Source: a phage. From it: a stretch of 64,000 nt of DNA. How positions within the stretch are numbered: the first letter of the stretch is position 1; each line of letters opens with the position of its first letter. Positions 14,066 through 33,341 of this stretch are shown here, one piece after another. The notes under the pieces were generated by a model. The model made no database searches and was not told where the DNA came from. It was given only the letters and a program-made list of their open reading frames with translations. The position numbers and the translations under genes were made by a program. The stretch is taken from the sequence record PZ445444.1. One strand, given 5' to 3'.

Positions 14066-14338
14066 ATGTTAAGCTGGATTAACCAAGAAGTTGAATCACG
14101 TTTCAATGCTATTTGGGATCTCATCGAAAAAGAGGACGGAACATCAAGCCCTTATCTCAATAATCTTGAATTCCATTTCGTGGAAGCGATGAACGCAGAA
14201 CATGATCACGAAGGTGGTGCGGATGAATTCGCTAAAGGATATGGCTTCAACAATGCCAACGAAATGATCGAGGCGGTTGTACTCCAGGCTGAGGAAGATT
14301 ATCAATTAAAAACGCTTGAATTCTGCCGCCGTAAGTAA
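14066..14338 (+). CDS. hypothetical acidic protein
   Basis: 90 aa from ATG with AGAGGAAAAC leader, preferred over track start 13982. Confidence 0.55.
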   Translation: MLSWINQEVESRFNAIWDLIEKEDGTSSPYLNNLEFHFVEAMNAEHDHEGGADEFAKGYGFNNANEMIEAVVLQAEEDYQLKTLEFCRRK

Positions 14339-14400
14339 TAAGATAATGACACAGGCCAAAAGGCCCACTAAACAAAAACCACATAAAGAGGAAAAACATC

Positions 14401-14664
14401 ATGAAACGCCTTGATCAGCTCAAATTAGTTCAATATATGGCTTATCGTGTTCTTGAAGTCCAGAAAGGTAGCAAAAAAGAGGTTTGCGAGAAAGCTTATA
14501 AGATCTTCACTCGCAAAAAAGATGATTGGATGTTACGCCAGACCAAAAAAGCCGATATCTTGGGGTACCTGGAAGAAGAGATCCGGCTTGAAGAGCAAGA
14601 AGAGATCCGCCGCAGTGAGGCAGATTATCAGGCAGCTTGGGAAAACTGGATGAATAACAAATAA
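14401..14664 (+). CDS. hypothetical protein
   Basis: 87-aa ORF, AGAGGAAAAACATC leader. Confidence 0.55.
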   Translation: MKRLDQLKLVQYMAYRVLEVQKGSKKEVCEKAYKIFTRKKDDWMLRQTKKADILGYLEEEIRLEEQEEIRRSEADYQAAWENWMNNK

Positions 14665-14730
14665 TACAACAAGTTACATGGTCAGGGGCAATAAAGCCCC
14701 TTGATCACATAAAAATTATGCCATCCTTGG

Positions 14731-14759
14731 TTGACAGGGATCGGCAGTTTTGCTATATT
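14731..14759 (+). promoter_or_regulatory. sigma70-like promoter
   Basis: TTGACA, 17 nt, TATATT upstream of ORF 14809. Confidence 0.5.
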
Positions 14760-14808
14760 CTTTTTTGAAGGGAAGTTGTAAGAAAATTAACTAAGAGGTA
14801 AAAACACC

Positions 14809-15228
14809 ATGAACATTAAATCTAATAATCCGGCATATAGCTTTGATAACGCTTTTTGTCACGGTCCGGCGGCGAAAGGATTCGAAATCGATGGTAAACT
14901 AGTTATTGTCAATGTTGACGGGGAAGAGGTTGCAGTATATCCGGTGGCAGACGTTAAAAGCCGTCTACAATGCCGCATCGATGTTACCGCCTACCAGCTT
15001 GATCCGGTCCGGGTAGTTGCCCTGGTCCTGGAAGAAGAAATTAAAGCAATGCACCACAGCAACAAGTTTATTGGTGACGCTCAAGATAATATGAAGGTGT
15101 GCCGCCATAAAGTTAATGAAGTGCTTAAAGAATATGGCTTTAAAGATCTGATGATCAAACGTGAGGAAAAATTCCGCTACCGTAACGACCTGGCAAATCG
15201 GATTTTTGAAATATACGAATCATTATAA
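14809..15228 (+). CDS. hypothetical protein
   Basis: 139-aa ORF, GAGG RBS; last gene of the rightward block. Confidence 0.6.
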   Translation: MNIKSNNPAYSFDNAFCHGPAAKGFEIDGKLVIVNVDGEEVAVYPVADVKSRLQCRIDVTAYQLDPVRVVALVLEEEIKAMHHSNKFIGDAQDNMKVCRHKVNEVLKEYGFKDLMIKREEKFRYRNDLANRIFEIYESL

Positions 15229-15246
15229 TTTCTTAACTGAATTATC

Positions 15247-15275
15247 AAGGGGCTTAAAGGCCCCTTTCTTTTTGT
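15247..15275 (+). terminator. rho-independent terminator
   Basis: AAGGGGC-ttaaa-GGCCCCTT hairpin followed by TCTTTTTG. Confidence 0.65.
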
Positions 15276-15879
15276 CTGCTCTTCTCCTACCATAAACGGC
15301 CCTACCTGGCAAGTGGAATAATTGACTAGCCATCAATCCCACATACTGTACAAATATACATTGAAAATAACTATTGCATAATTTTTCATTGTGTGGTAGC
15401 AGGGCCATTTTTACCCGTTTTCTCTCCCAAAAGTGCACGTAATGCCGCTATTGCACAAATTTTAACCTGATGCACATCTCCAATATCTTGTCAACAACTA
15501 AAAATCTTTATAAGTCATACACTTACACAGCATCGAAAGCGTGTTCTACGCGAAAAATAGAGTATAACTATAGCCGCCAGATCTCAGAATTCACGTACGC
15601 ACGCCATTCTATAGCCTGCAAAGTATTTATTCCAACCACAGAATAAAGGAATAGTCAATACCTGCATAAAATAATTATTCGTGTAAACTGCATAACATAA
15701 ATCAGCTCAGGTGTCAACATTTTTCGTAAACAGCCCGAAATTATCACGATGAGTTATCATAAACAGAGAAATCTTTAGTCGTCTAATGTTTACTGTACAT
15801 TACTATACTGACTGGAATCATTAGATGACTAAGAGAAAGATAAGAAATAATTAATAATGTAATTGTTTTACCTGTAACA

Positions 15880-16145
15880 ATAAGGCAACTATGCAAACGA
15901 ATGGCATGGCGCGACGGAGTCGCGACATAATATAAAAGCAGTAACCATCACCCCCGTGATAGTTTGTCTGCAAACTATTAATCAGATCATAGTTGCCTTG
16001 TATTTAGTTAATCATGACATAACAAGCAAGGCAACTATAGATCTTATAATAGTTGCCCTGCTTTTATATTATGTCATGCTAATTATAATCAGTGCGATTA
16101 TTGTCATGTATAATTATTGTCATGCAAACGAATGGCATGGCTGAT
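15880..16145. repeat. cluster of direct and inverted repeats
   Basis: GCAAACGAATGGCATGGC at about 15893 and 16125; CAAGGCAACTAT with inverted ATAGTTGCCTTG copies; ATTGTCATG repeated. Confidence 0.55.
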
Positions 16146-16153
16146 TATCGGTG

Positions 16154-16239
16154 TGTAAACAGTCAATCATGTAAATGGTTAGCATGTGAACAATCAGGAA
16201 TGTAAACAATCCAGTGTGTAAACTAATAGGTGTGTAAAA
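16154..16239 (+). repeat. iteron array: six TGT(A/G)AA(C/T/A) heptamers at a regular 15-16 bp spacing
   Basis: heptamers start at 16154, 16170, 16185, 16201, 16217, 16233. Confidence 0.65.
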
Positions 16240-17693
16240 GTGTCATGTTGTGTCAGTTAGGTCACATTATGTCAGACAAGTTTTTCTCCTCTTTGTCAAG
16301 TGCTGCATGAAAAATTTACAATCTTGTATGGTAGCATTTTTGCGGCCCTGTTTACATTCAGGAGTGTATGTATAATCCTTGGTGTGTGGGCGTTTAGACG
16401 TCTAGACGGTCAGAAGTCTGCAGGTCAATATCTAATCTATTGGCTGCTAACTATATCCCCCACAAATAATAAGAAATATAATTGTTATGTGCGTAAACAG
16501 TAACCCATGTTATCAATCCCTGTATGTATCGCCAGTGGTGCGCATAATGGGTATTATGTTAAATTGCCCGTAATGATAACTATTCTCACAATGATAGGTA
16601 TTCTCATTCACTCCCACAAGATAGGTTGCAAATGTTGTGCCATTGTGTGAACGGCCTCACCTATTAATTTGCCTCACTGCCTCGATATTTGAGAATTGTT
16701 ATAAGAATGAGAATGATTCCCATTTCGTCCGCCTAGCAGCACTCCTGTAGGACAAGCACAAAATCGTGGCATAGCTGGACCTGTTCAGATATTTCTGGCT
16801 GGCTCTTCAGGTCTGTGTGGGAAAAGCCAACCCCCTCCGGCGGCGGGGAGGGTGTCAATTAAAAAATTTACGGGGTATATGAAGCGCTCTTCAGGTAAGG
16901 CATGTACTATGGGATGAAACCCTCTTCGGGCAATGATATTTGTGGGTGTGATATTTGCTGGAAAGCCAGATATGACGGGACTCCCGGCGGGGCAGGGGTA
17001 GTACAGACAGGGAAAATATGGGGATGTAGTTGGGTGAATTGATCGGGCAGGTAGAGTATGGAATATGTTACAAGTATGTTAAATATGGAGGGTGAATATC
17101 TGCAGGATTTGTGTGTAAAATCAAAGACTTAAGTAGTGTTGTGGTATTTTCTATAAATAATTCAAGTTTAATAGGTAATATTTGTCTCTATCCACTTTGT
17201 GTGGTAAACAAATTCAAATGAGATTGGTTTACAAGTGTATACATAATATACAAATTAAAGATACAAGAAACCCCCCTCCCCCTTCGGCTACCATTCACCT
17301 TTTCCTCTGACTGGTACTTAAACACTTATTCAGACTCTTCAGGTTATCACCCATATACCATATGGCAGTGACTGGTGTCCTCCGGCCCCTCTTTCGTCAC
17401 CCGTCCGCTTCGCCATGCTAATGCCATAGCCAAATGTTCGGTTGTTCACCCTGTTCACTCAGGTGTATCTCCATACCCCTTCAAACCGAAGAGAACAGAA
17501 AACCCGAATTACTCGGTAAAAGAAAAGAGAAGAACTTAATTTTATCAGGATAGGCAAGAATGTCAAGGCATGACTGCTCACTAAACAAGCAAACAGTCAT
17601 GTGTGGGAGGTAAGTGATTGTGGTGGTAGGAAATTTAGTTGAAAGATGTGTTATAGGTGCTTCCAGCACTTTAGCCTGGCAGCTAATTGTGTG

Positions 17694-18602: not shown

Positions 18603-18914
18603 CTATACCCACGAGGGCTTATCAAGGTTGGAGTAGCTGAAAGGTGTCAAAAGGTGACTGTCAAAATCTCTCAAACTATCCAAATCTTTTTCCTCGTCCT
18701 GACACCATCTGTGCCTACATTTGTTGTTGTAGTGCATGGAATGCATAGCGTTCTGCAACTTAACAGGCACAAGTGATTCAGGAGTAGATAGTATTGTTGG
18801 GTATGCCAGAACCACCTCAAACAGTGGAAACACATCGAAACTAAAGTCTACCTCTGCAGAGGTTGATGGCATATAGGAGTATTTAGCCGCCTTTGTAGAC
18901 ATAATCCACCTCAC
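18603..18914 (-). CDS. hypothetical protein
   Basis: 103-aa ORF. Confidence 0.55.
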   Translation of the reverse strand: MRWIMSTKAAKYSYMPSTSAEVDFSFDVFPLFEVVLAYPTILSTPESLVPVKLQNAMHSMHYNNKCRHRWCQDEEKDLDSLRDFDSHLLTPFSYSNLDKPSWV

Positions 18915-19623: not shown

Positions 19624-19941
19624 TTAACGTTCTACAAAAATACCGTTCAGTTCAATAACCAGGAATTTCTGGTCTTCACTATCGTCACGAGCCAGCACCT
19701 CACAGACGTAACGGTCATCTCCGTCATCATCACAGTCAAATACAAGACTGAGGACTTTATCATGATAAACCTTCGCCACTACCGCCTCGTAAGTATTGCC
19801 GATTGTGAATCCAAGATAATCTCCAATGCATTTGACAACAACATGATCACCAGCATTCAAGTCAATCTTCGTCATTACTGCGCTCCTTGGGTAATAATAC
19901 TGTATGTAAAACTTTAACCAGAGATGTGAATAACGCCCCAA
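19624..19941 (-). CDS. hypothetical protein
   Basis: 105-aa ORF. Confidence 0.6.
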   Translation of the reverse strand: MGRYSHLWLKFYIQYYYPRSAVMTKIDLNAGDHVVVKCIGDYLGFTIGNTYEAVVAKVYHDKVLSLVFDCDDDGDDRYVCEVLARDDSEDQKFLVIELNGIFVER

Positions 19942-20030
19942 AACACACCGATAGCGCTAAAACAGACAAGGCCATCATTAAAGCTTCAGTAAAATCAGTC
20001 ACCCCTCACCTCTTGTTAGTCACTATACTG

Positions 20031-20294
20031 TCATTTATCCTTGCCGTCAAGAACTTTTTTAAATCTTTCAGGGATATCGCCTGTTCTTAGATAGCTCATG
20101 ACCTCACAAGGTTCCCACTTAAATTTCTTACAGAGCAGGGCGGCTGAGATTGTTTCATTGCGAAAAGAAAGGATATTAATATCCCACTCTGAGAACCCCA
20201 ACTTCCGAAGGGTAGCTACAGAAATCCTCACCGCAACCCAGCAGCAAAAACATGCAACAAACGCCACTGCTACAACCCACATCAGGATGTTCAT
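20031..20294 (-). CDS. hypothetical membrane protein
   Basis: 87-aa ORF; N-terminal TM helix with Cys cluster. Confidence 0.5.
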   Translation of the reverse strand: MNILMWVVAVAFVACFCCWVAVRISVATLRKLGFSEWDINILSFRNETISAALLCKKFKWEPCEVMSYLRTGDIPERFKKVLDGKDK

Positions 20295-20303
20295 ATAAGC
20301 ACC

Positions 20304-20387
20304 TTACTGAAATACAAGACACAGTGTTAAGGTTACTGACCAGCAAATAATTAACAGTGCCGTTGCAACCTTGGCAAGATTTATCAT
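20304..20387 (-). CDS. small membrane peptide
   Basis: 27-aa hydrophobic ORF; start overlaps upstream stop (ATGA). Confidence 0.3.
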   Translation of the reverse strand: MINLAKVATALLIICWSVTLTLCLVFQ

Positions 20388-20671
20388 AGTGCCTCTAAGA
20401 TTTCATATCCTTCGGGTCGGAATACAAGCCACTCCGTGGCTCCGTTTGGTCGATACGCTTTATACAGAACAACCTGATCTCGGCACATGCACATAGCTAC
20501 ATAGTTTTCATCCACACCTGCAGCCTGCATTGCAGCTTCTTCTCCGGCAACTGCTTTGCTTACAACTTCCTTGGTAGGCAGGTGTGCGATCAGCTCGTCA
20601 CCATCATTAATTCCAAAATGGCTGAGTTCGCCGTTGGTATCTTTAATCTTAATCTTAACCAGATCTTTCAT
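20384..20671 (-). CDS. hypothetical protein
   Basis: 95-aa ORF. Confidence 0.6.
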   Translation of the reverse strand: MKDLVKIKIKDTNGELSHFGINDGDELIAHLPTKEVVSKAVAGEEAAMQAAGVDENYVAMCMCRDQVVLYKAYRPNGATEWLVFRPEGYEILEAL

Positions 20672-21000
20672 TAGTCTTCCTCCAGGTTCAAAGGTCCTAA
20701 GATTTCATATGCCAGATTAGAAGTTACAAGAGGGTCTTCTGCGTCTTTAGTATTATACCACCCGTGAATAACCAGAGTCCCACTTTGTTTCATGTCCAAC
20801 TGGAACTCTTCTGCCGTTACCTCATCCAGCTCCAAGATTTCCATAAGGTATTTGATGTTAGGGAGGTATGCAGCTGTTACAGTCCCCTCTACCAGACCTT
20901 CAGGCCAACCTACATCTGGATGACAAGTAGGAACCAGGTTGGTCAGCTTAATGGTGTACGCTTTTTCTGCACGAGCCTTCAGTAACGGGTCAATCTTCAT
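20671..21000 (-). CDS. hypothetical acidic protein
   Basis: 109-aa ORF. Confidence 0.6.
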   Translation of the reverse strand: MKIDPLLKARAEKAYTIKLTNLVPTCHPDVGWPEGLVEGTVTAAYLPNIKYLMEILELDEVTAEEFQLDMKQSGTLVIHGWYNTKDAEDPLVTSNLAYEILGPLNLEED

Positions 21001-21350
21001 TATTCGTCCTCCTCTTCGGTACCTGCTTCCAGTAATAAGTTAAGAATATCTTCTGCACAAGGTTCATAGAACTCTTGGCCTTCATTATCGATGATTTTGT
21101 AGTCATCTCCACGAATAATCAGGGGATCACTATCAAAATTATCGAGACCTTTAACAACGACAACACGATCGATTGCCATCATTGTAAGAACTTTATCGAC
21201 ATCTTCCTCTGCTACACCATACTGCAGCAGAATGTCTTTGGTAGGAGGAACAGCATCCACCACAACGCCGTTACCAAAACCTTCTGGAAGTTTAGCTAAA
21301 ATATCTTCCGGAACCACATTCACATCAAAACCGGTAATTTCTACTTTCAT
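21000..21350 (-). CDS. hypothetical acidic protein
   Basis: 116-aa ORF. Confidence 0.6.
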   Translation of the reverse strand: MKVEITGFDVNVVPEDILAKLPEGFGNGVVVDAVPPTKDILLQYGVAEEDVDKVLTMMAIDRVVVVKGLDNFDSDPLIIRGDDYKIIDNEGQEFYEPCAEDILNLLLEAGTEEEDE

Positions 21351-21611
21351 TTACAGCACCTCTTCGTCAACTACTTCATAAAAATGGCCTGGGATTGCAA
21401 TAGCGTTATCACCTTCACCTACAAACACAGTTCCGTCAAGAATCAACATCATAAGAATTTCTGTAATATCCTCTTCCGGAACGTTGCCAAAACCTTTAAT
21501 CAGCTCGTAGGTTGGAATATTTACCTCTAAGATGTCACCATCTTTAGAACGGAAATCAACACCGTCCTGAATCTCTGCCGTTTCAAGGTTTTTCAATTTA
21601 ATCTTCATCAA
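21351..21611 (-). CDS. hypothetical acidic protein
   Basis: 86-aa ORF. Confidence 0.6.
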   Translation of the reverse strand: MMKIKLKNLETAEIQDGVDFRSKDGDILEVNIPTYELIKGFGNVPEEDITEILMMLILDGTVFVGEGDNAIAIPGHFYEVVDEEVL

Positions 21612-21687
21612 TCGGTCCCCTGTCTTGTTAAGATGAAGGTATTATTTCACACAGGGTTGGCGTTGTCAACACCTGTGTGCAAGAAAA

Positions 21688-22083
21688 TTACTGAAACAGT
21701 GCGGATAAATTACCTTCTGGTGGGAACTTATCTGCCAAAAACGGTGTTAGCACAGTAGCCTTCTGAAGATCTGGGGTCCACTCGTTGTTCAGAACATCCC
21801 AGTAGTACGCAATGTTGCTGTGTGGGTGCCGCATTACGAACTTTTTCCCTTCGTAGTCGTCTGAAACCTCTACAGAAGAAATAACAACAGAATCTTCAAG
21901 GGTTTCCTCGTAGAAAGATCCACCTTCAAATTTCCAACGAGATGCAAGAGCTCCTGCCTTGAACGCTGCAGATAACGGACTGTCGGCAAGAACATACATT
22001 TCTTGCACTCTGTCGCTGCGATCTTTGCTTCTTACATTGTATACAGTATCTGAGCTATACTCAACACGGTATAGGCTTACCAT
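21688..22083 (-). CDS. hypothetical protein, paralogue of 23890-24288
   Basis: 131 aa; shares a conserved ...HP.S....YW......WTP....AT.L... pattern with the 132-aa ORF at 23890. Confidence 0.6.
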   Translation of the reverse strand: MVSLYRVEYSSDTVYNVRSKDRSDRVQEMYVLADSPLSAAFKAGALASRWKFEGGSFYEETLEDSVVISSVEVSDDYEGKKFVMRHPHSNIAYYWDVLNNEWTPDLQKATVLTPFLADKFPPEGNLSALFQ

Positions 22084-22442
22084 TACCGCACCTCCTCAAT
22101 AACTTCCACATCTGAACCTACCACAAATGCAAAAGGACAGGTTTCATGAAAGATATCCGGATCGCCGCCAAGCTTGCTAACAATTTCTCCACCACTAATA
22201 AACACAAGCTCACCGATATTCATCAGATTGCTGAAATAGTACCCATAATGATTAAAGAATGCAGCAGGGTCAGGTAGACTAGTAGCCTCAAGCACTACAT
22301 CAGTTGAGGTTACTTTCTTATCATAACCTCTCGCCTTTTGAGATGCAAGATCTGCAGAATCCTCAGGCGACCGGAGATGCACAGGAATTGTTTCACCAAT
22401 AAAGCGTACTTTCATATTATCACCCAACAACCATAGCTTCAA
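22083..22442 (-). CDS. hypothetical protein, distant member of the MKVK small-protein family
   Basis: 119 aa; internal MKVRFIGE... and C-terminal VGSDVEVIEE resemble ORFs 24301, 24545, 28186. Confidence 0.55.
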   Translation of the reverse strand: MKLWLLGDNMKVRFIGETIPVHLRSPEDSADLASQKARGYDKKVTSTDVVLEATSLPDPAAFFNHYGYYFSNLMNIGELVFISGGEIVSKLGGDPDIFHETCPFAFVVGSDVEVIEEVR

Positions 22443-22683
22443 AAGGGGTCATGAACGAATAAACGGCATCATCATCTGCTTCAGGGAATGCTCCCAAAGA
22501 CTTCATGTCTGAGCCCTTGACAAATACAAGGTTTTGATCAAAAGCTTCTTGAGGATCAATCCGATACATATTTCGTAGAATATCGCCTACCTCCTCATCA
22601 AGAGGTGAGTATGCTGTGCACGTTTTTCCGATCAAGCTTTGAGAATCAGGGTATCCACCTGAAGTTTTAAAATAAACAATCAT
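22420..22683 (-). CDS. hypothetical protein
   Basis: 87-aa ORF. Confidence 0.55.
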   Translation of the reverse strand: MIVYFKTSGGYPDSQSLIGKTCTAYSPLDEEVGDILRNMYRIDPQEAFDQNLVFVKGSDMKSLGAFPEADDDAVYSFMTPFEAMVVG

Positions 22684-22774
22684 ATAGTATCACCTCTGGT
22701 AAGAGATTGGGATTCCTTTCCCACAAATAATTACAAACCTTCCTTATCGAGGAAGTATGCTAATCCAAGCAGGA

Positions 22775-23044
22775 TTATTCCTCTACAATCTCATACACAT
22801 CCGGAGTTACAATCAACTCTTCTCCGTTACCCGGTGCAACAAACACCACCATGCCTTCAGGTGTGTGCTTTTTAGCCATCTCGATAACATCTTCTCGCAG
22901 AGCTGGCTCCATCAGATCAAAACCTTCACCCAGGGCATCACGAACCACCTTCATATAGTCAACTGGTTGTGCTTCGACAATCATACCTTCAACCAGTCCA
23001 CAGTTTTTGTCTGCCAGCTCAGTTTTGAATAATTTAATTTTCAT
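22775..23044 (-). CDS. hypothetical acidic protein
   Basis: 89-aa ORF. Confidence 0.6.
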   Translation of the reverse strand: MKIKLFKTELADKNCGLVEGMIVEAQPVDYMKVVRDALGEGFDLMEPALREDVIEMAKKHTPEGMVVFVAPGNGEELIVTPDVYEIVEE

Positions 23045-23070
23045 TTAGAGGTCTCCTCAATTATTTGATA

Positions 23071-23172
23071 TTAATAGCCGTAACCTAACACATTAACTAC
23101 AACTGCGATTGCAAACATAATTTCAAAGCATGCAATCTCTACATTTGGGACTAATTTCTTGATCACACCCAT
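23071..23172 (-). CDS. small membrane peptide
   Basis: 33-aa ORF with GAGGTG RBS; hydrophobic. Confidence 0.35.
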   Translation of the reverse strand: MGVIKKLVPNVEIACFEIMFAIAVVVNVLGYGY

Positions 23173-23181
23173 TGTAGCACC

Positions 23182-23499
23182 TCATTCTCTAAAGTCAATC
23201 TTTACTTTGCCTTTCCCCTTACCTTTCTTTCCACCGCATTTAGCCAGTTGACGTGCTGCAACATCTACCATACGGTCAGTTGCCTCGTAAGCATCACTGC
23301 CTTTAGCTTTGGCAATAACTTCTTTTCCAGAATTGTCAAAAATGAACGCCATAACTTCCTGGTGATCATTTTCAACTTTTACACTCACACGTGCATAGTT
23401 GGCAGAGGGATGCAAACGCTCCAGCTTAGACATTTTGTGGGAAATGAAAGACACCATACCTTCAGTGATTTCTACGTTGCCAGTGATTTCAATTTGCAT
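23182..23499 (-). CDS. hpf: ribosome hibernation-promoting factor / RaiA-family homologue
   Basis: 105 aa; N-terminus MQIEITGNVEITEGM...KLE...VSVKVE...AKAKGSDAYEATD...ARQLAK aligns along its length with my recollection of E. coli HPF (MQLNITGNNVEITEAL...KLEQY...VVLKVE...ASAEGQDMYAAIDGLIDKLARQLTK); lysine/glycine-rich tail. Confidence 0.75.
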   Translation of the reverse strand: MQIEITGNVEITEGMVSFISHKMSKLERLHPSANYARVSVKVENDHQEVMAFIFDNSGKEVIAKAKGSDAYEATDRMVDVAARQLAKCGGKKGKGKGKVKIDFRE

Positions 23500-23581
23500 A
23501 ACGTGTTCCTTTTAAAGAAGAGGGAACCAAACCCTCTTTGAAAACAATGATACTAAATCTGAAGCGTTGTGTCAACAGTTT

Positions 23582-23872
23582 TTACAGATTGTTGTCGATA
23601 GTTTTTAAAATATCCACAGCAAGATCTGCCATTTTTCGAACATACTCTGCAAACTCAACAGGATCCTTGATCAAAGAATTCACAGGGTCGTACCCTAGAG
23701 CGTTCAAAATGGCTGCAGCATCTACAACCTTCTCATCATTTGCGAAGATCTCTCCATCAAACTTGTAGGTCCATTTTGAGTCAATCTTGGCAGGGAATGA
23801 TTGGTCAACGCTTGTTACACCATCCTTTTTAAACGCTCCGGTGTTATCAGTGTCTAGAACTAAATCCATCAT
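23582..23872 (-). CDS. hypothetical protein
   Basis: 96-aa ORF. Confidence 0.55.
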   Translation of the reverse strand: MMDLVLDTDNTGAFKKDGVTSVDQSFPAKIDSKWTYKFDGEIFANDEKVVDAAAILNALGYDPVNSLIKDPVEFAEYVRKMADLAVDILKTIDNNL

Positions 23873-23889
23873 GTTAGTACCTCACCGTT

Positions 23890-24288
23890 TCAGTTTAGCT
23901 TTTCTTCAACAACCCCATAGCTCGGGACAGAGTCAAGAGCTTTCTGGTTTAAAAGTGGTGTAGCAGAATCTGCAAACGGTGTCCAAGTTTTTGTTCTGGC
24001 GTTCCAGTAATGCTTCACTCTGGAATCTGGATGCACTATAACAAAAACTTTTTCACTTGTCAACACATTAATTTCTTCCACACCCCTGCTGATAATTTCT
24101 CCGTCATATCCCCCGGTCTGGTATCCTTCGTACCAGGTTCTTGCATAGGCATAGCCAGCCTGCCAGCATGCAGCCTCCTCCGAGGTGGAGACTACGTAGA
24201 AGTCTTTCTCAAATTCTGGGATACGCCCTTGCTTTACGCTCCAAGCTCCGCGAATTTTCATTGTAACTTTGAATAGTTTATTTTTCAC
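23890..24288 (-). CDS. hypothetical protein, paralogue of 21688-22083
   Basis: 132-aa ORF. Confidence 0.6.
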   Translation of the reverse strand: MKNKLFKVTMKIRGAWSVKQGRIPEFEKDFYVVSTSEEAACWQAGYAYARTWYEGYQTGGYDGEIISRGVEEINVLTSEKVFVIVHPDSRVKHYWNARTKTWTPFADSATPLLNQKALDSVPSYGVVEEKLN

Positions 24289-24300
24289 AACGGTTACCCA

Positions 24301-24555
24301 TCACAGTTCTACAATATCTGCATCTGACCCTGCCCCAAAGGCATAATAGGACTCTTCCCCGAAATAATATTCCGGTGCACCAGCAGCGATCAGGTCTGAT
24401 CCCAAAATGAATACCACGTTGTGGCCTACATAGCTGTGATTTTGCCGCACAGGATCATCCCACGGCAACCCTTCGAAGTATACCGCAGGGACGACCTTTC
24501 CTTTCAGGAAGGATTGCCCCAAGTAGACGTTAGAATCAAGAATTTTAACCTTCAT
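24301..24555 (-). CDS. hypothetical protein, MKVK small-protein family
   Basis: 84 aa, MKVKILDSNVYLGQ...GKVV...DLIAAGA. Confidence 0.6.
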   Translation of the reverse strand: MKVKILDSNVYLGQSFLKGKVVPAVYFEGLPWDDPVRQNHSYVGHNVVFILGSDLIAAGAPEYYFGEESYYAFGAGSDADIVEL

Positions 24556-24772
24556 GATCGTCCTCCACTATCTCTACATCCTCACCTAGGGCAAAGTTGT
24601 AGGTCCACTGACTGTCAAAGCATTCCTGAGATGCACCAGCGGCAATAAGATCTGCCCCTTTTATTTTTAAAAGGTCAGGGTAATCTTCGTTAGGGACAGC
24701 AGTAAACACTTTCCCTACTAAAGGCTCCTGACCAATATAGAAGCTTGAATCTAAAACTTTAACTTTCATCAA
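24545..24772 (-). CDS. hypothetical protein, MKVK small-protein family
   Basis: 75 aa, MMKVKVLDSSFYIGQ...GKVF...DLIAAGA. Confidence 0.6.
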   Translation of the reverse strand: MMKVKVLDSSFYIGQEPLVGKVFTAVPNEDYPDLLKIKGADLIAAGASQECFDSQWTYNFALGEDVEIVEDDHEG

Positions 24773-25056
24773 CGGTCTCCATCAGGTGGTTGTGGGACGT
24801 AAACACTGTTACGAATATCGTCCGCAGTATAGTAATAAGTGTCTCCAACCCTATCTCTGGCTGCAATGTACTCTGCTATACCAATAAGTGCCATTGATTT
24901 GGTGGCGTATCTTCCCCACTCGTTAGCTCCCCAGTAGAATTTAGACCAGTAGGGAATAATACCGAACAAATATACCTTTTGACGAACTTCCCAGTAAGTG
25001 CCTTTTCCGACAAGTTTAAACTCTACTTCACTACTGTTAATCTTTTTCATTATCAA
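24769..25056 (-). CDS. hypothetical protein
   Basis: 95-aa ORF. Confidence 0.6.
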   Translation of the reverse strand: MIMKKINSSEVEFKLVGKGTYWEVRQKVYLFGIIPYWSKFYWGANEWGRYATKSMALIGIAEYIAARDRVGDTYYYTADDIRNSVYVPQPPDGDR

Positions 25057-25349
25057 TCTCCCTCTACCGTGGTCGGATTGTCAGTAAGAAATTGAGCATT
25101 GGCTGGAGGCACGCCTGACATTTTCCACACAACCATAAGTTTGTAACCAGGAACTCTATTAAGTGCAGATCGAGTAGAGTTTGTGCACGTATACTTTCGC
25201 TTTCCAAACCCGTTCTCCATCATAATCCAGTACCCAGTATCTTTGTCACCAGGTATCGGTAGACCACCTTCATCAACCCACTGAATGGACCACGGCACGA
25301 TGGCTACAGCTTTATATTTAAACTTTTTAAACCACTCAAAAAGTTTCAT
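25053..25349 (-). CDS. hypothetical protein
   Basis: 98-aa ORF. Confidence 0.6.
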   Translation of the reverse strand: MKLFEWFKKFKYKAVAIVPWSIQWVDEGGLPIPGDKDTGYWIMMENGFGKRKYTCTNSTRSALNRVPGYKLMVVWKMSGVPPANAQFLTDNPTTVEGD

Positions 25350-25352
25350 AAT

Positions 25353-25442
25353 TCAGCCTCGCATAGACATAATCACTATAAACAGGCAAACAATGAATCC
25401 GAATGCCACGCCACCCATAAACGTTAATATTGATGCAATCAT
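25353..25442 (-). CDS. small membrane peptide
   Basis: 29-aa hydrophobic ORF, GAGG RBS, ATGA overlap with upstream stop. Confidence 0.3.
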   Translation of the reverse strand: MIASILTFMGGVAFGFIVCLFIVIMSMRG

Positions 25443-25444
25443 AG

Positions 25445-25642
25445 TCAATCAGCCTCGCTTGGCAACTCTTCTACCTTAACATGCCGAAAAGTGTTACCGT
25501 AATGGTTGATCCATGACATCAGCTCGCTTTCTTGCTCTTCCTCTGGGATGAACTCTCGAATGCTGACAAGTTTTAAGAAAACCCAATCACAATCTGCACC
25601 CATTCTACCAGACAGGCAATAGTGCTTCATAAAACCCCCCAC
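25445..25642 (-). CDS. hypothetical protein
   Basis: 65-aa ORF. Confidence 0.5.
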   Translation of the reverse strand: MGGFMKHYCLSGRMGADCDWVFLKLVSIREFIPEEEQESELMSWINHYGNTFRHVKVEELPSEAD

Positions 25643-25647
25643 CTGGT

Positions 25648-25842
25648 TTAGAATATTGCTTCTTCCATTGCACCTGAGAGCAACAAAGAGGTGATCTGGC
25701 TAACATTCATCTCAGACTCTACTTCCTCCCCTTTGAAAGGTTCGCGGCAGAATAGGACTGTTTCAGGACTTTTACTTCGAACAATATAATACAAATCATT
25801 CAATGTGTTGTAGTAATAAGTGTTAAAACGTAAGTTTTTCAT
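25648..25842 (-). CDS. hypothetical protein
   Basis: 64-aa ORF. Confidence 0.5.
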   Translation of the reverse strand: MKNLRFNTYYYNTLNDLYYIVRSKSPETVLFCREPFKGEEVESEMNVSQITSLLLSGAMEEAIF

Positions 25843-26126
25843 TTTCTAGTCCCCTTCTTAGATTTTTGTGTAGAAACGCTTTCTGCAATACGAGACAAAC
25901 GTTCTTCTGAAGCCTTGCCTATTCCAGGTTTTTTGAGTGGGTTATCTTTATGACCACAATCCAATTGGATATTGGATACCTCTCCAACCTTGTAAGTCAA
26001 TTCTAGCAAAAGGTTGTCGTCCTTGTCAAATGTTCTTACGATAAATTTTTTATCGTTCTCCTGAACTTCGTATCGGGTACCCGCAGTATACAGCATGGTG
26101 CCATCCGCATAGGATATCCAGATCAT
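25839..26126 (-). CDS. hypothetical protein
   Basis: 95-aa ORF. Confidence 0.55.
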   Translation of the reverse strand: MIWISYADGTMLYTAGTRYEVQENDKKFIVRTFDKDDNLLLELTYKVGEVSNIQLDCGHKDNPLKKPGIGKASEERLSRIAESVSTQKSKKGTRK

Positions 26127-26470
26127 TGAACCTCCTTCTGCTGCAACAGCATTAACTCTTTGTTGGAGATTTTTACTGCTGTTTTTATTGTTCCATCTTC
26201 ACGAAACCACGACCAGAACTCTACAGTGTCCCCACTGTCAAGCAAAGCATACCCGTGGTAGAAGTCTTTGTCCTTAGACAGTTTCTCATCTATGTCTGCA
26301 TCGACACATTCGTGATCCATAGCATTTTGCCTGAATGCATCGGTTATACCAATGCACGCCTTGCTCTCAAGACTGGTATATCCGATATCTTTTAATTCAG
26401 TTTCCCAAGTCCAGTACCCTATAAAAGCTAAAACAGCTACCCACATTAATAACGTTTTAATCTTTGGCAT
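26123..26470 (-). CDS. hypothetical protein with N-terminal signal/anchor
   Basis: 115 aa; N-terminal hydrophobic segment LLMWVAVLAFIGYWTW. Confidence 0.55.
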   Translation of the reverse strand: MPKIKTLLMWVAVLAFIGYWTWETELKDIGYTSLESKACIGITDAFRQNAMDHECVDADIDEKLSKDKDFYHGYALLDSGDTVEFWSWFREDGTIKTAVKISNKELMLLQQKEVQ

Positions 26471-26532
26471 TCTCTCTACCTCTTTCTTAGTTTATTTCAC
26501 TATGGCACATCCTTTGTGCCATATCTCAACCA

Positions 26533-26940
26533 CTACTTAAATAGTAGTCCAAAATAGTGCAAAATTAACAGAAGTTGAACTACACCTAGTGCAACGGCGA
26601 GTATGTTAATCTTAGAATCGAAAAACTTCTTAACTTTTACTCTAAAAGGTTCCTTAATGTCCTTTACGATCCTATTTATAGATGATTTCATATCCCTGAT
26701 TACCATCCTAAACATTAGAGACGGATCTTCCTTCTCTGTAATAGAATCGAAAACATACTCTCTTCGGTCATAAGGACCTCCAGATCTGCGTATTAACCTC
26801 TCCACAGAGACCTCGTACGACACACCTGTAACGTAATCATCTATGATAAGTAGTGACGGGTCTTTATCGTCCAAGGGTATTAAAGTTATCTTTCCAGATT
26901 TTGTTAAAATTTCTCCTTTTTCAAGCAAGGTGTACCCCAA
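26533..26940 (-). CDS. hypothetical protein with C-terminal TM helix
   Basis: 135 aa; C-terminal ILAVALGVVQLLLILHYFGLLF. Confidence 0.55.
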   Translation of the reverse strand: MGYTLLEKGEILTKSGKITLIPLDDKDPSLLIIDDYVTGVSYEVSVERLIRRSGGPYDRREYVFDSITEKEDPSLMFRMVIRDMKSSINRIVKDIKEPFRVKVKKFFDSKINILAVALGVVQLLLILHYFGLLFK

Positions 26941-26992
26941 TGCTCTCTACCAAGATTGTTGAGGCACGTTTTTACATATTTAACAAACATCG

Positions 26993-27178
26993 TCACCCCT
27001 CATCGCACGTCTGATATAACCACTCTATGAAATCTTGATACCATTCGCCCTCTGAGCGCTCCGTAGGCCAATAATCTTCACCCTCTCGTGCATTAAAATC
27101 TGAGTATTCAACTTTCCACTCCTTTACCAGCTCGTGGAGAAGGTTTTCAGCCTGCTCTAAAGATTTATTTTTTGCCAT
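26993..27178 (-). CDS. hypothetical acidic protein
   Basis: 61 aa from internal ATG with AAGGAGA RBS (track start at 27196 is TTG). Confidence 0.5.
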   Translation of the reverse strand: MAKNKSLEQAENLLHELVKEWKVEYSDFNAREGEDYWPTERSEGEWYQDFIEWLYQTCDEG

Positions 27179-27272
27179 TGCTGTCTCCTTTTTCAAGATA
27201 GTTATACATCAGAACTGCACCACCTAAGATGGCTACCAGTAACAATATCCCAGATAGCATCTCAATAAACAT
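27165..27272 (-). CDS. small membrane peptide
   Basis: 35-aa ORF MFIEMLSGILLLVAILGGAVLMYNYLEKGDSNGKK. Confidence 0.3.
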   Translation of the reverse strand: MFIEMLSGILLLVAILGGAVLMYNYLEKGDSNGKK

Positions 27273-27414
27273 GGCTTGAAACACTGTAAGGTCTCCCTAA
27301 ATTAACGCACCATTTTAAATACATGCTCTTTTCCCATAAAGGTGCCTGGCTAAGATCTGCGTAGAACGCAATCTCTTTAAGAACAGTATAGATAGTTTTA
27401 GGTGCGGTCTCCAT
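27262..27414 (-). CDS. hypothetical small protein
   Basis: 50 aa from internal ATG with GAAGGAGAG RBS. Confidence 0.3.
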   Translation of the reverse strand: METAPKTIYTVLKEIAFYADLSQAPLWEKSMYLKWCVNLGRPYSVSSHVY

Positions 27415-27625
27415 CCCTACTCTCCTTCCTGATATTCTTGTAGTAATCAACTAGGCACATTATTACGATGAAGATAACAACAGGCCAAAAAGGTGCAGCA
27501 GTGATGATGGTGATAAAATCATCAAACTTCACCCTTCGTCTGGACACGATGCATACACCTGTCAAGAATACCGCTGTTATAACGGACATTACCAGGTAAC
27601 CTATTAGCACAACATTTATACTCAT
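27398..27625 (-). CDS. hypothetical membrane protein
   Basis: 75 aa, two predicted TM helices. Confidence 0.5.
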   Translation of the reverse strand: MSINVVLIGYLVMSVITAVFLTGVCIVSRRRVKFDDFITIITAAPFWPVVIFIVIMCLVDYYKNIRKESRDGDRT

Positions 27626-27655
27626 TGGTCCTCCCTTTGTAGGTTAAATTGTATA

Positions 27656-28189
27656 CTACAAATGGTCGCTGAGGGTGTCAAGAAAATTATCCCGTTCTTT
27701 CTCAGAGTTTTCATGTGTGTAGCTGAAAAACATATCGAGAATAACCTTATTGATATATTCCAGCTCCTCTGTGTTCAGATGCTTAGCAGGATCTACAATG
27801 ACATCCCAAATATCATACAGACCACACTCATGATACCCATAACGCCACTCAATTGTCAAGCTGAGCGGCAAATCTTTACCTTCACAAACAACCTTCCATC
27901 TACATATGTTGGTATCTGGTCGTACCTGTGCACGGTAAACCTGCACAAAATCCAATTTGAATTTGAGGTACTCGTCATACAATTTAAGCACAAAGCTCTC
28001 GATTTGTGGAGACACTTTTGCAGCAAACTGTGCGTATTTGTACTTGCACTGGATGATCTTTCTACGTTTTGCAGTTAAATTTTTTGCCGCCAGTTGTTCT
28101 TCAGTGTATCTCCACCTACGATCAACAAACGCAACAGGGTCTTTGTCCCCATAGAGGTCTTCCCAGTTAATCAGAAGCATACCTGTCAC
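27656..28189 (-). CDS. hypothetical protein
   Basis: 177-aa ORF. Confidence 0.6.
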   Translation of the reverse strand: MTGMLLINWEDLYGDKDPVAFVDRRWRYTEEQLAAKNLTAKRRKIIQCKYKYAQFAAKVSPQIESFVLKLYDEYLKFKLDFVQVYRAQVRPDTNICRWKVVCEGKDLPLSLTIEWRYGYHECGLYDIWDVIVDPAKHLNTEELEYINKVILDMFFSYTHENSEKERDNFLDTLSDHL

Positions 28190-28419
28190 TCCTCCACAAC
28201 TTCAAGGCCTTTACCGCCTCGCTCTGGCAGATTACTTAAAGATAGGTAATACATATAATCAGGAGAGATCCTGCCAGACTCTGCACCTGCAGCTAGTAAA
28301 TCCTTCCCTTTAACCAGGACAACATTCTCGTTTGCAGATAGCCGTTTTGCTTCCACAATTTTACCAACACAGTCAACCAAGGAAGGGTACCCTAAATCTG
28401 TAAGAAATTTAACTTTCAT
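28186..28419 (-). CDS. hypothetical protein, MKVK small-protein family
   Basis: 77 aa, MKVKFLTDLGY...GKIV...DLLAAGA. Confidence 0.6.
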   Translation of the reverse strand: MKVKFLTDLGYPSLVDCVGKIVEAKRLSANENVVLVKGKDLLAAGAESGRISPDYMYYLSLSNLPERGGKGLEVVEE

Positions 28420-28456
28420 GCTACCTCCTACCTACCGTCCCTGGTAAGATAAATTA

Positions 28457-28855
28457 TTACTGAACAGAGCGCGGTGCTGGGAAGGATAACTCTTCTAAAG
28501 AGAAGATTTCATTTCCTACCACCCAAGTTGCTGGGTCATCTGGATCAATAGGTTGGATAATCATTACCTCATCCGCCTCGCACACACGTTTCCCACCCAT
28601 AGTAGCGTCAGCCACTAACATACGCGGCTCTTCAGAAATGCACAGGTAGCCACCTCGGCCCACTGTTCCTTCCACGGGATCCTGCCCTTTGACCACAATG
28701 AATACCTTCTCTCCTGTGGCGATATTACTTTTCACACTAACAGTTTGACCAACTTTAGATGTACCGACCTTGGTGGCTTCAAACATTAAATCCCGAATTA
28801 CTGTTGCATAGTTGCCGGACACTTTCTTACCTTCTTTAGTAATCTCAATCTTCAT
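28457..28855 (-). CDS. hypothetical protein
   Basis: 132-aa ORF. Confidence 0.6.
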   Translation of the reverse strand: MKIEITKEGKKVSGNYATVIRDLMFEATKVGTSKVGQTVSVKSNIATGEKVFIVVKGQDPVEGTVGRGGYLCISEEPRMLVADATMGGKRVCEADEVMIIQPIDPDDPATWVVGNEIFSLEELSFPAPRSVQ

Positions 28856-29124
28856 AATCTAGGCTCCTTAAATGAATCTATGTAATCAATTAAATCCCAA
28901 GCATCCCTATGACCTGTCAGAGGGTATACTTCTCCAAGAGGGATCATAGCAATAAGTCTATCAAAAACCCAATCTGGACGCAACATTTTATGGTGATACT
29001 CCCACTCACCTTCTACAGACTTTTTCTGAGTGATCAGGATCTCTGTGTAGTGTTTCGCCTGTCTTGAGTAGATTGAGAATGACTTGTACATAAATGGCCC
29101 CCTCTTGTTGAAAACAAAATACAC
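28852..29124 (-). CDS. hypothetical protein
   Basis: 90-aa ORF. Confidence 0.55.
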   Translation of the reverse strand: MYFVFNKRGPFMYKSFSIYSRQAKHYTEILITQKKSVEGEWEYHHKMLRPDWVFDRLIAMIPLGEVYPLTGHRDAWDLIDYIDSFKEPRL

Positions 29125-32867: not shown

Positions 32868-33341
32868 TTAGTCAACCTGAACCCAACCATCTGCTACCTT
32901 TTTAAACATTCTTTGGTTATCACTGCCTCTAAAGGGTTTTTTGGTGGGGTTATCTTTTTCGTACTTACCGTCCATAATGTAATCAACACTATCTTTAATG
33001 TAATCGGGGACTTCTTCAAACAAATACCCTGTGTACACCCAGATAGTTTTTGTGTTGCCGAAGCGTTCACGGATAGCGCAAATGATTGAATACATACCAT
33101 CAATATTGTAAGGCGCTAAAGGCTCTCCACCGCATAATGTAACGCCGGTAATATGGTTTGGTTCTATAGAGCTAAGTATGCTCTCGATTGTGTCATTTGT
33201 TAACGGTTCCCCTTTAGCGGGTGACCAAACACTTTTGTTTTGGCAACCAACGCAGTGATGTGGACAACCAGAACAGAACACCGTTGTCCTAATGCCTGGG
33301 CCGTCAACCATACTACACTCTATAATATTAACAACATTCAT
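32868..33341 (-). CDS. nrdG: anaerobic ribonucleotide reductase activating protein (radical SAM)
   Basis: 157 aa; N-terminal Cys cluster CSGCPHHCVGC and GGEP motif. Confidence 0.8.
   Translation of the reverse strand: MNVVNIIECSMVDGPGIRTTVFCSGCPHHCVGCQNKSVWSPAKGEPLTNDTIESILSSIEPNHITGVTLCGGEPLAPYNIDGMYSIICAIRERFGNTKTIWVYTGYLFEEVPDYIKDSVDYIMDGKYEKDNPTKKPFRGSDNQRMFKKVADGWVQVD

Follow-up and report, generated by a model that had tools for sequence, protein, structure and literature searches.

Three families of duplicated small proteins in an accessory gene array of an rV5-like phage, and a host-specific requirement for one gene cassette in a near-identical relative

The window analyzed here is a 64,000-nucleotide stretch of phage DNA (sequence record PZ445444.1), of which positions 20304-29124 carry, on the minus strand, the array of small genes that is the subject of this report. 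The array largely consists of three families of small, mostly acidic proteins, which we term families A, B, and C and which arose by repeated duplication, together with at least two genes for tiny membrane peptides. In a near-identical phage, one cassette with the gene order A-A-B (22683 to 21688) is required on the clinical Escherichia coli isolate CFE311, where the second copy of the B gene is partly required. We favor, with modest confidence, the interpretation that the region is the accessory part of a leftward gene block and holds an array of host-specific counter-defense or takeover genes derived from duplicated families.

The window belongs to a Vequintavirus, an rV5-like phage of E. 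coli. The 9.5 kb around the array are 99.7% identical to Escherichia phage JohannBauhin (Bas53) and 88-99% identical to about 120 other Vequintavirus genomes, and the minus strand carries all genes from approximately 17.7 to 56 kb. Vequintaviruses rank among the coliphages most often isolated and serve in therapy cocktails, and about two-thirds of their genes have no assigned role. In public records, all genes within 20031-29124 are labeled "hypothetical" except four, namely a ribosome hibernation factor (HPF) homolog at 23182-23499 and the inconsistently labeled genes 26533-26940, 27656-28180, and 22775-23044. Sequence searches of the array proteins against Pfam, NCBIfam, PADLOC, and the PDB gave no match beyond the HPF gene. 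An original prediction, made from the letters of the window, had proposed families of small acidic paralogs with interleaved hydrophobic peptides and had read their repeated duplication as a hallmark of an anti-defense or host-takeover locus.

Duplicated gene families of the array

The members of the three families, all on the minus strand, are given below and are referred to by their lower coordinate. E-values for family A refer to a hidden Markov model (HMM) built from homologs outside the window alone. The ratio of non-synonymous to synonymous polymorphism (pN/pS) and the codon-position counts were derived from 10 related genomes.

28186-28419, minus strand: family A, 77 residues, solitary copy; HMM E=3.9e-21, phrog_5009 E=8e-36, pN/pS 0.12
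24545-24769, minus strand: family A, 74 residues, gene 1 of A-A-B cassette 1, modeled for family A; HMM E=1.3e-25
24301-24555, minus strand: family A, 84 residues, gene 2 of cassette 1, short insertion between strands 2 and 3; HMM E=2.6e-18
23890-24288, minus strand: family B, 132 residues from the GTG at 24288, gene 3 of cassette 1; phrog_7379, BLASTP against 21688-22083 E=3.6e-9
22775-23044, minus strand: family C, 89 residues, modeled for family C; leave-one-out rank 1
22420-22683, minus strand: family A, 87 residues, gene 1 of cassette 2; HMM E=6.9e-8, phrog_13920
22083-22415, minus strand: divergent family A, 110 residues, gene 2 of cassette 2; HMM E=2.5e-6, phrog_13661
21688-22083, minus strand: family B, 131 residues, gene 3 of cassette 2; phrog_7379 E=2e-66, pN/pS 0.05
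21351-21608, minus strand: family C, 85 residues, first of four consecutive C genes 3' of a sigma-70-like promoter; BLASTP against 21000-21350 E=1e-4, pN/pS 0.21
21000-21350, minus strand: family C, 116 residues, very acidic C-terminal tail, net charge -21; leave-one-out E=1.4e-5, rank 1
20671-21000, minus strand: probable family C, 109 residues, N-terminal extension; C HMM E=0.0077
20384-20671, minus strand: family C, 95 residues; leave-one-out E=7e-5, rank 1, pN/pS 0.06

Family A comprises five genes (28186, 24545, 24301, 22420, and 22083), four of which had been grouped in the original prediction. All-against-all BLASTP among 48 minus-strand proteins linked 24545 with 24301 (E=7e-15) and with 28186 (E=1e-6), 28186 with 22420 (E=2e-3), and 24301 with 22083 (E=3e-3). 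The HMM built from foreign sequences recovered exactly these five proteins, the next best protein of the window scoring E=0.45, which confirms the four genes grouped earlier (BLASTP E=7e-15 to 3e-3, HMM E=1.3e-25 to 2.5e-6) and adds 22420-22683 as the fifth. The profile-based comparison therefore puts the paralogy on a sound statistical footing and extends it beyond the genes first listed, to a fifth A member and to family C. A six-frame scan of the whole window found no further members of A, B, or C. Word-indexed searches returned merely close orthologs and prophage copies of family A, and it was only an exhaustive profile search of 1.84 billion representatives that widened the family, yielding 40 cluster representatives at E<=1e-3, most of about 70 residues. 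The family consensus reads MKVKLL..GY.GL..VGKVV.A...G.DLI..GA...F....Y.F....E.VEE.

The five copies of family A were found in all 10 Vequintavirus loci examined. The proteins 24545 and 24301 are 50% identical over match columns, and both of them, as well as 28186, match phrog_5009 at 1e-32 to 1e-39. The solitary 28186 is the closest relative of the mEp021 gp40-type prophage proteins and shares 41-49% identity with the genes of mEp021, mEp013, and mEp554. The 22420 protein carries an insertion of about 20 residues, presumably helical, between strands 2 and 3. In the most divergent member, 22083, the C-terminal half alone aligns with the family A profile (hhalign against 24301: 58%, E=1e-4). The TTG at 22442 had been taken as the start of this gene, and the annotation makes the ATG at 22415 the more likely one; its stop codon overlaps the start of the following B gene as TAATG. 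Outside Vequintavirus, family A is sparsely distributed: homologs are present in 35 of the 5426 complete E. coli genomes, and unrelated metagenomic phages carry copies among their early or replication genes, one of these phages having two; in a 42.5-kb phage contig the family A gene lies beside prim-pol and AAA_24 genes.

Family B consists of the two genes 23890 and 21688, and their proposed paralogy held well (BLASTP E=3.6e-9, hhalign 94%), both aligning over their full lengths with phrog_7379 (5e-69 for 23890 and 2e-66 for 21688). The family is confined to Vequintavirus, where nearly every genome has both copies (224 places in 118 records), and word-indexed searches returned near-identical orthologs only. 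The GTG start at 24288 chosen for the cassette 1 copy was borne out by the 27 nucleotides (nt) upstream of the alternative ATG (24262-24288), in which all seven substitutions are synonymous. A phmmer search had suggested a resemblance of family B to ubiquitin-conjugating enzymes (E2/UBC), three such enzymes matching at E=0.4-0.8 over a segment with the pattern HP...W(S/T)P. We rejected it as a chance similarity; it was lost with a two-sequence profile, and Pfam UQ_con gave no match.

Family C comprises four or five genes restricted to Vequintavirus: 22775, 21351, 21000, 20384, and probably 20671. The first four align with one another over their full lengths. Since all-against-all hhalign on shallow ortholog profiles gave only weak links within the family, we used leave-one-out HMMs scored against 4800 shuffled decoys in addition to the 48 real proteins. 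In all four cases the member left out came first of 4848, with E-values of 1.4e-5 to 1.7e-3 for three of them and a marginal result for 21351 (E=0.093; 11.4 bits versus 9.8 for the best decoy). The same procedure placed 20671 at rank 2 (E=0.036), and with an HMM built without it, 20671 was the sole non-training match below E=1 among the six-frame open reading frames (ORFs) of the window, so its sequence makes it a probable member. Four of the five C genes are consecutive (21608 to 20384). A match of 21000 to RBL4, a designed repeat protein, arose through the acidic tail and was discarded.

The description of the proteins as acidic applies to most members, with net charges of -1 to -13 and a minimum of -21 in 21000, and does not extend to all of them (-1 for 28186 and -2 for 23890). 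No transmembrane segment was predicted in any A, B, or C protein.

Predicted folds of families A and C

The AlphaFold2 model of 24545-24769, computed from an 18-sequence alignment, has five strands and one short helix, with a predicted local distance difference test score (pLDDT) of 91 and a predicted template-modeling score (pTM) of 0.79. The model of 22775-23044 (pLDDT 85, pTM 0.64), based on the five paralogs only, places its strands at the same relative positions as in family A and adds three helices (residues 30-60) between strands 2 and 3. The five antiparallel strands of both predicted models superpose on solved structures of the SH3/KOW type. According to these models, families A and C are both SH3-like five-stranded barrels, an assignment at the level of the fold, and the matches of both families are generic for the SH3 fold. 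A Foldseek search of predicted viral structures found the same fold (template-modeling score, TM, 0.6-0.8) in many small uncharacterized proteins from T4-like, T1-like, Vequintavirinae, and other phages, none of known function. The second match of the family A model in BFVD was the 87-residue ortholog of 22420 in Shigella phage CM1 (TM 0.80).

Families A and C share the fold, the terminal motifs, and the position of insertions, as the insertions of the family A members 22420 and 22083 lie in the same loop as that of family C. A common origin is plausible. At the sequence level, however, hhalign linked the two with a probability of 4% (E=0.011) over 24 N-terminal columns only, so that sequence or profile similarity does not unite them in a single superfamily. 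Neither Pfam SH3, KOW, or Tudor (E<=0.1) nor NCBIfam matched any A or C protein, a PDB sequence search with the family A profile gave no match, and no KOW or S1 sequence motif was found in the barrel proteins.

Gene arrangement, promoters, and selection

Read 5' to 3' on the minus strand, the array opens with the solitary A gene 28186, followed by membrane-protein and other small genes and by cassette 1 (A 24545, A 24301, B 23890). The gene 23582-23872 comes next, then a promoter-like site, the HPF gene, the micro-ORF 23071, the C gene 22775, and a weak hairpin. Cassette 2 (A 22420, A 22083, B 21688), a further promoter-like site, the run of four C genes, the micro-ORF 20304, and membrane genes complete the order. 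The succession A-A-B is thus present twice, with the HPF gene between the two cassettes. It is uncertain whether a single segmental duplication produced it, because the closest relative of 24545 is 24301 and vice versa.

23547-23575, minus strand: sigma-70-like promoter in the 82-nt gap 5' of the HPF gene; TTGACA-17-TATCAT, 11/12, extended TGTTGACA motif
23182-23499, minus strand: ribosome hibernation factor (HPF) homolog, outside families A, B, and C; Pfam Ribosomal_S30AE E=1.8e-12, so annotated in many records
22739-22755, minus strand: weak hairpin resembling a terminator, within the 91 nt that separate 22775 from cassette 2; stem of 6 bp, then GTTTGTAATT
21641-21669, minus strand: sigma-70-like promoter in the 79-nt gap preceding the run of four C genes; TTGACA-17-AATAAT with TG extension, 11/12

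Sites of the sigma-70 type (10-12/12) occur in the five largest intergenic gaps, several of them with the extended motif, which would point to transcription by the host polymerase.

In every A, B, and C gene the variation falls on third codon positions, and pN/pS lies between 0.04 and 0.21, as opposed to values above 1 in most off-frames; judged by these substitution patterns, all family members are under purifying selection. The array is also plastic. In two Vequintavirus contigs (L018 and L019, positions 2501-2713 in each, orthologous to window 24301-24769), one 70-residue hybrid replaces the tandem pair. It begins as 24545 and ends as 24301, with the junction at the DLIAAGA motif present in both, the outcome that unequal crossing-over would give. 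Phage MaxBurger (Bas54) lacks the equivalent of 25053-26940, a natural deletion of 1.9 kb that removes seven genes including the micro-ORF 25353-25442, so this block is naturally dispensable.

Host-specific requirement for an A-A-B cassette

A 2025 preprint reports transposon sequencing (HIDEN-SEQ) of Bas54, that is, phage MaxBurger (bioRxiv 10.1101/2025.11.20.689424). We verified the orthology: the array proteins of Bas54 are 85-100% identical to those of the window, and the A, B, and C orthologs 95-100%. On K-12, all scorable array genes (bas54_0135-0168) are non-essential or intermediate (bioRxiv 10.1101/2025.11.20.689424). Dispensability in a permissive laboratory host, as expected of anti-defense genes, is thus apparent from Bas54 on K-12 and from the natural deletion and fusion variants.

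On the clinical isolate CFE311, compared with K-12, the three genes of cassette 2 had zero reads (q=0), with log2 fold changes of -7.16 for bas54_0152 (22420-22683, family A), -6.17 for bas54_0151 (22083-22415, family A), and -6.77 for bas54_0150 (21688-22083, family B), whereas bas54_0157 (23890-24288, the other B gene) showed a four-fold drop (log2 fold change -2.14, q=0) (bioRxiv 10.1101/2025.11.20.689424). The HPF ortholog is non-essential and has no phenotype on CFE311 (bioRxiv 10.1101/2025.11.20.689424). The header of Extended Data Table 8 names the CFE311 data file and 27 significant genes (bioRxiv 10.1101/2025.11.20.689424); the sheets "K-12 vs CFE303" and "K-12 vs CFE311" of this table are identical, both headed CFE311. 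The authors argue that widespread polar effects are uncommon (bioRxiv 10.1101/2025.11.20.689424), and this is consistent with insertions in bas54_0158 and bas54_0159 not mimicking those in bas54_0157. As a separate observation, the Bas54 genes bas54_0132-0134, in the region equivalent to 14066-15227 on the plus strand, have log2 fold changes of -2.9 to -5.2 on CFE311. In the window, bas54_0133 corresponds to about 14400-14663 and bas54_0134 to about 14808-15227, and bas54_0132 is absent.

Of direct relevance to immunity is bas54_0140, which a knockout validated as needed against the defense system DS-28 of E. coli CFE311; bas54_0063 and bas54_0140, both validated as DS-28 inhibitors, are the only genes for which knockouts were combined with cloned defense systems (DS-28, Gao_Tmn) (bioRxiv 10.1101/2025.11.20.689424). 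The window ortholog of bas54_0140 (18603-18902, minus strand, 99 residues, 99% identical) lies 1.5 kb from the array described here. The anti-defense or host-takeover reading is therefore plausible and partly supported by independent data for four genes, the orthologs with a CFE311 phenotype, as well as by this neighbor; its mechanism is unproven, and no defense system has been matched to any A, B, or C gene.

Several further points weigh against that reading. No CFE311 phenotype was recorded for the C genes bas54_0146-0149, the A genes bas54_0158, 0159, and 0166, or the micro-ORFs bas54_0154 and 0162, and the decrease of the C gene bas54_0153 (22775-23044; log2 fold change -2.78) was not significant (bioRxiv 10.1101/2025.11.20.689424), so that 8 of the 12 paralogs and both micro-ORFs in the table have no significant phenotype. 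Insertions in bas54_0152 and 0151 could take effect by way of the gene that follows in cassette 2, which is coupled in translation, and the preprint neither discusses bas54_0150-0152 and 0157 nor reports clean knockouts of them (bioRxiv 10.1101/2025.11.20.689424). The temporal class of the genes is derived solely from consensus promoter matches, the family C model from a five-sequence alignment, and the common ancestry of A and C is unproven. Vequintavirinae are reported to be exceptionally sensitive to restriction-modification systems (PMC8594841). Finally, gene duplication alone is not diagnostic of an anti-defense function.

Restriction sensitivity of this kind also opposes the specific idea that the proteins are DNA-mimic anti-restriction factors of the Ocr/ArdA type. 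The proteins do not fit this type, having net charges of mostly -1 to -13, with one of -21, and models that are beta-barrels.

The requirement on CFE311 may instead reflect non-immune differences between the hosts, in which case the A-A-B cassette would fit the development of the phage to wild E. coli, whether to their envelope, their physiology, or their growth state. Many tail-fiber genes are likewise conditionally essential on CFE311, as are further small genes without a known role, the table header giving 27 significant genes. In addition, the HPF gene and several membrane proteins in the array suggest physiological manipulation, and PADLOC, Pfam, and NCBIfam provided no link of the array to immunity. 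Nevertheless, a validated anti-defense gene lies in the same array, and a direct envelope role is not expected of A, B, and C proteins lacking predicted transmembrane segments. Counter-defense loci typically consist of small, fast-turnover, duplicated accessory genes. We regard this account as unlikely.

Rather improbable, in our judgment, is that the SH3/KOW-like barrels are expression regulators that bind RNA polymerase, ribosomes, or nucleic acid and act with the phage hibernation factor. The position of the HPF gene between the cassettes and the early-type promoters in the array would suit such a role, but the barrel proteins contain no KOW or S1 motif and have no Pfam match at E<=0.1, their acidity disfavors nucleic-acid binding, their genes are fully dispensable on K-12, and their fold matches are of a generic nature. 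That the paralogs are functionless leftovers of duplication is scarcely credible. Dispensability on K-12 and the natural deletions and fusions might be taken to suggest it, yet the low pN/pS and the third-position variation in every member already contradict it, and so do the retention of five A copies in 10 of 10 genomes and the CFE311 phenotype of four paralogs.

Micro-genes and membrane proteins

Four hydrophobic micro-ORFs of the array had been singled out in the original prediction.

27165-27284, minus strand: micro-gene for a single-pass membrane peptide of 39 residues (GTG 27284) or 35 residues (ATG 27272); phrog_15251, full length at 39 residues
25353-25442, minus strand: micro-gene for a 29-residue hydrophobic peptide; variable sites by codon position 4/0/7, pN/pS 0.21 versus 3.5 in frame +1
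23071-23172, minus strand: 33-residue hydrophobic micro-ORF that follows the HPF gene, of ambiguous coding status; phrog_15151, strong GAGGTG Shine-Dalgarno sequence 5 nt upstream
20304-20387, minus strand: 27-residue hydrophobic micro-ORF, coding status ambiguous; intact in 10 of 10 genomes, no PHROG, unannotated in JohannBauhin

All four exist as predicted, each with one strongly hydrophobic 19-residue segment (Kyte-Doolittle 2.27-2.59) and some Shine-Dalgarno-like sequence, and a coding pattern was evident in two of them. For 27165-27284, variable sites are distributed 3/2/17 over the codon positions, pN/pS is 0.06 versus about 1.9 in the other frames, and the best start is the GTG at 27284 with GGGAG 7 nt upstream; its coding nature is well supported by this pattern. 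That of 25353-25442, which is naturally dispensable, is supported likewise. In these two, a conserved frame with coding-type substitutions goes together with a ribosome-binding site and a transmembrane segment. The claim that the micro-ORFs are mostly coupled by ATGA overlaps did not hold: 20304-20387 alone has a literal ATGA overlap, 25353 and 23071 start 2 and 9 nt after the upstream stop, and 27165 overlaps both neighbors.

The substitution pattern fails to identify 23071 and 20304 as genes, and it is nearly an even question whether they are instead frames left open by chance in short spacers or in regulatory stretches; we lean slightly toward genes. In 20304, all three frames have a pN/pS of about 0.5, which is no coding signature, the variable sites are distributed 3/5/7, and neither a PHROG nor a JohannBauhin annotation exists. 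For 23071, the sites are distributed 3/2/3 with pN/pS 0.32, phage Mangalyan has a premature stop, a 10/12 promoter-like site overlaps the start, and transposon sequencing of Bas54 gave no phenotype. On the other hand, each frame is uninterrupted in 9-10 of the 10 genomes, both retain the hydrophobic core and Shine-Dalgarno-like sequences, and many records list 23071 as a gene, with a separate PHROG for it.

Further membrane proteins of the array are encoded at 19862-20002, 20031-20294, 26123-26470, 26533-26940, and 27398-27625. Matches to LRAT, AcrZ, YqzM, and MP_p6 all scored well below the family cut-offs and were dismissed. At 26941-26943, within the gene 26533-26990 on the minus strand, we noticed a 2-bp insertion (CCCC versus CC in JohannBauhin and A51.2), which shifts the frame at the 5' end of a tail-anchored phrog_7821 "virion structural protein" gene and splits it into a 30-residue ORF and a 135-residue ORF starting from TTG. 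It could be a homopolymer sequencing error or a real truncation.

Other features of the window and the records

The divergently transcribed arms are separated by a 2.5-kb region without genes (about 15228-17693), in which no tRNA was found. It contains iteron-like direct and inverted repeats (GTGTGTAAAC, ATAGTTGCC) and a perfect 18-nt inverted repeat at 15924/16058, and its Bas54 equivalent tolerates no transposon insertions (bioRxiv 10.1101/2025.11.20.689424). The region may be a replication origin or control region. NrdG, the anaerobic ribonucleotide reductase activator (32868-33341, minus strand), is 52% identical to that of MaxBurger, while the flanking genes are 98-100% identical, indicating a mosaic replacement. 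Eighteen GenBank records named "Campylobacter phage" carry the array region; among the six listed, DNA identity is 94-97%, and the 28186-28419 product is 95-100% identical. Their host label looks doubtful, as they carry a region of an E. coli phage.

Discussion

If the array serves counter-defense or takeover, the barrels might act as stoichiometric binders of host proteins, either adaptors or inhibitors, each paralog having its own target, and the paralogs would jointly supply a set of host-specific factors. Within one cassette, the A and B proteins would cooperate, transcription from the sigma-70-type promoters in the intergenic gaps would provide early expression, and the membrane peptides may modulate envelope proteins. 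A bolder version would take family A, with structural relatives in T4-like, T1-like, Vequintavirinae, and temperate coliphages, as an unrecognized, widespread counter-defense superfamily, the roughly 10 A and C barrels as an inhibitor repertoire, and each A-A-B cassette as a three-protein module that disarms an immune system present in wild E. coli, for instance in CFE311. We consider this version doubtful and offer it as speculation.

A dispensable phage accessory-gene array with duplicated small proteins is of an already known kind. New are the fold assignment, the delineation of family C together with a fifth family A gene, and the link of the repeated A-A-B cassette to a host-specific phenotype that had gone undiscussed. 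About a dozen genes of unknown function thereby reduce to two or three structural families, and one A-A-B cassette and the second B gene make a shortlist for new counter-defense or host-range factors and their host target. As prophages and unrelated phages have family A genes too, a function found for the family would transfer to them. Searches of the literature on rV5/Vequintavirus transcriptomics, on the paralogs, and on mEp021 gp40 returned nothing relevant.

Comparison with known systems

Many small membrane proteins are predicted in phage genomes, and the micro-genes resemble them in their length of 29-39 residues, their single hydrophobic helix, and their tight packing between genes; 27165 and 25353 are likewise conserved under purifying selection. 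They differ in that the micro-ORFs of the array have no meaningful E-value to holins, spanins, AcrZ, or type I toxins, are not located beside lysis genes, and in two of four cases carry no coding signature.

With the small beta-barrels of the SH3-like fold (SH3, NusG/Spt5 KOW, PsaE, and the C-terminal domain of retroviral integrase), families A and C share the five-stranded barrel and the long loop after strand 1, and family A also the short helix after strand 3, as far as the predicted models go. Unlike SH3/KOW proteins, which are domains of larger proteins, A and C are stand-alone proteins of 74-116 residues. They have in common an MK(V/I)K(L/I/F) motif in the N-terminal strand 1 and E(V/I)(V/I)EE in the C-terminal strand 5, and family C and two A members carry the insertion between strands 2 and 3, comprising three helices in the C model.

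In PHROGs, phrog_5009 (24545, 24301, and 28186) and phrog_7379 (both B genes) are matching families of unknown function, so the closest paralogy was already implicit in public clustering. The database separates 22420, 22083, and each C gene into families of their own and makes no statement on fold, function, or gene arrangement. The prophage genes of mEp021, mEp013, and mEp554 occupy a classic moron position, in mEp021 between Q and the lysis genes. These lambdoid-type prophages have a single copy, whereas Vequintavirus has five diversified copies, and the mEp021-type prophages have no B or C partners; mEp021 gp40 has no known function, as in Vequintavirus. The validated anti-defense gene bas54_0140 and its window ortholog 18603-18902 do not resemble the A, B, and C proteins in sequence, but bas54_0140 lies in the same leftward array of small genes and, like the genes of cassette 2, is dispensable on K-12 and strongly depleted on CFE311.

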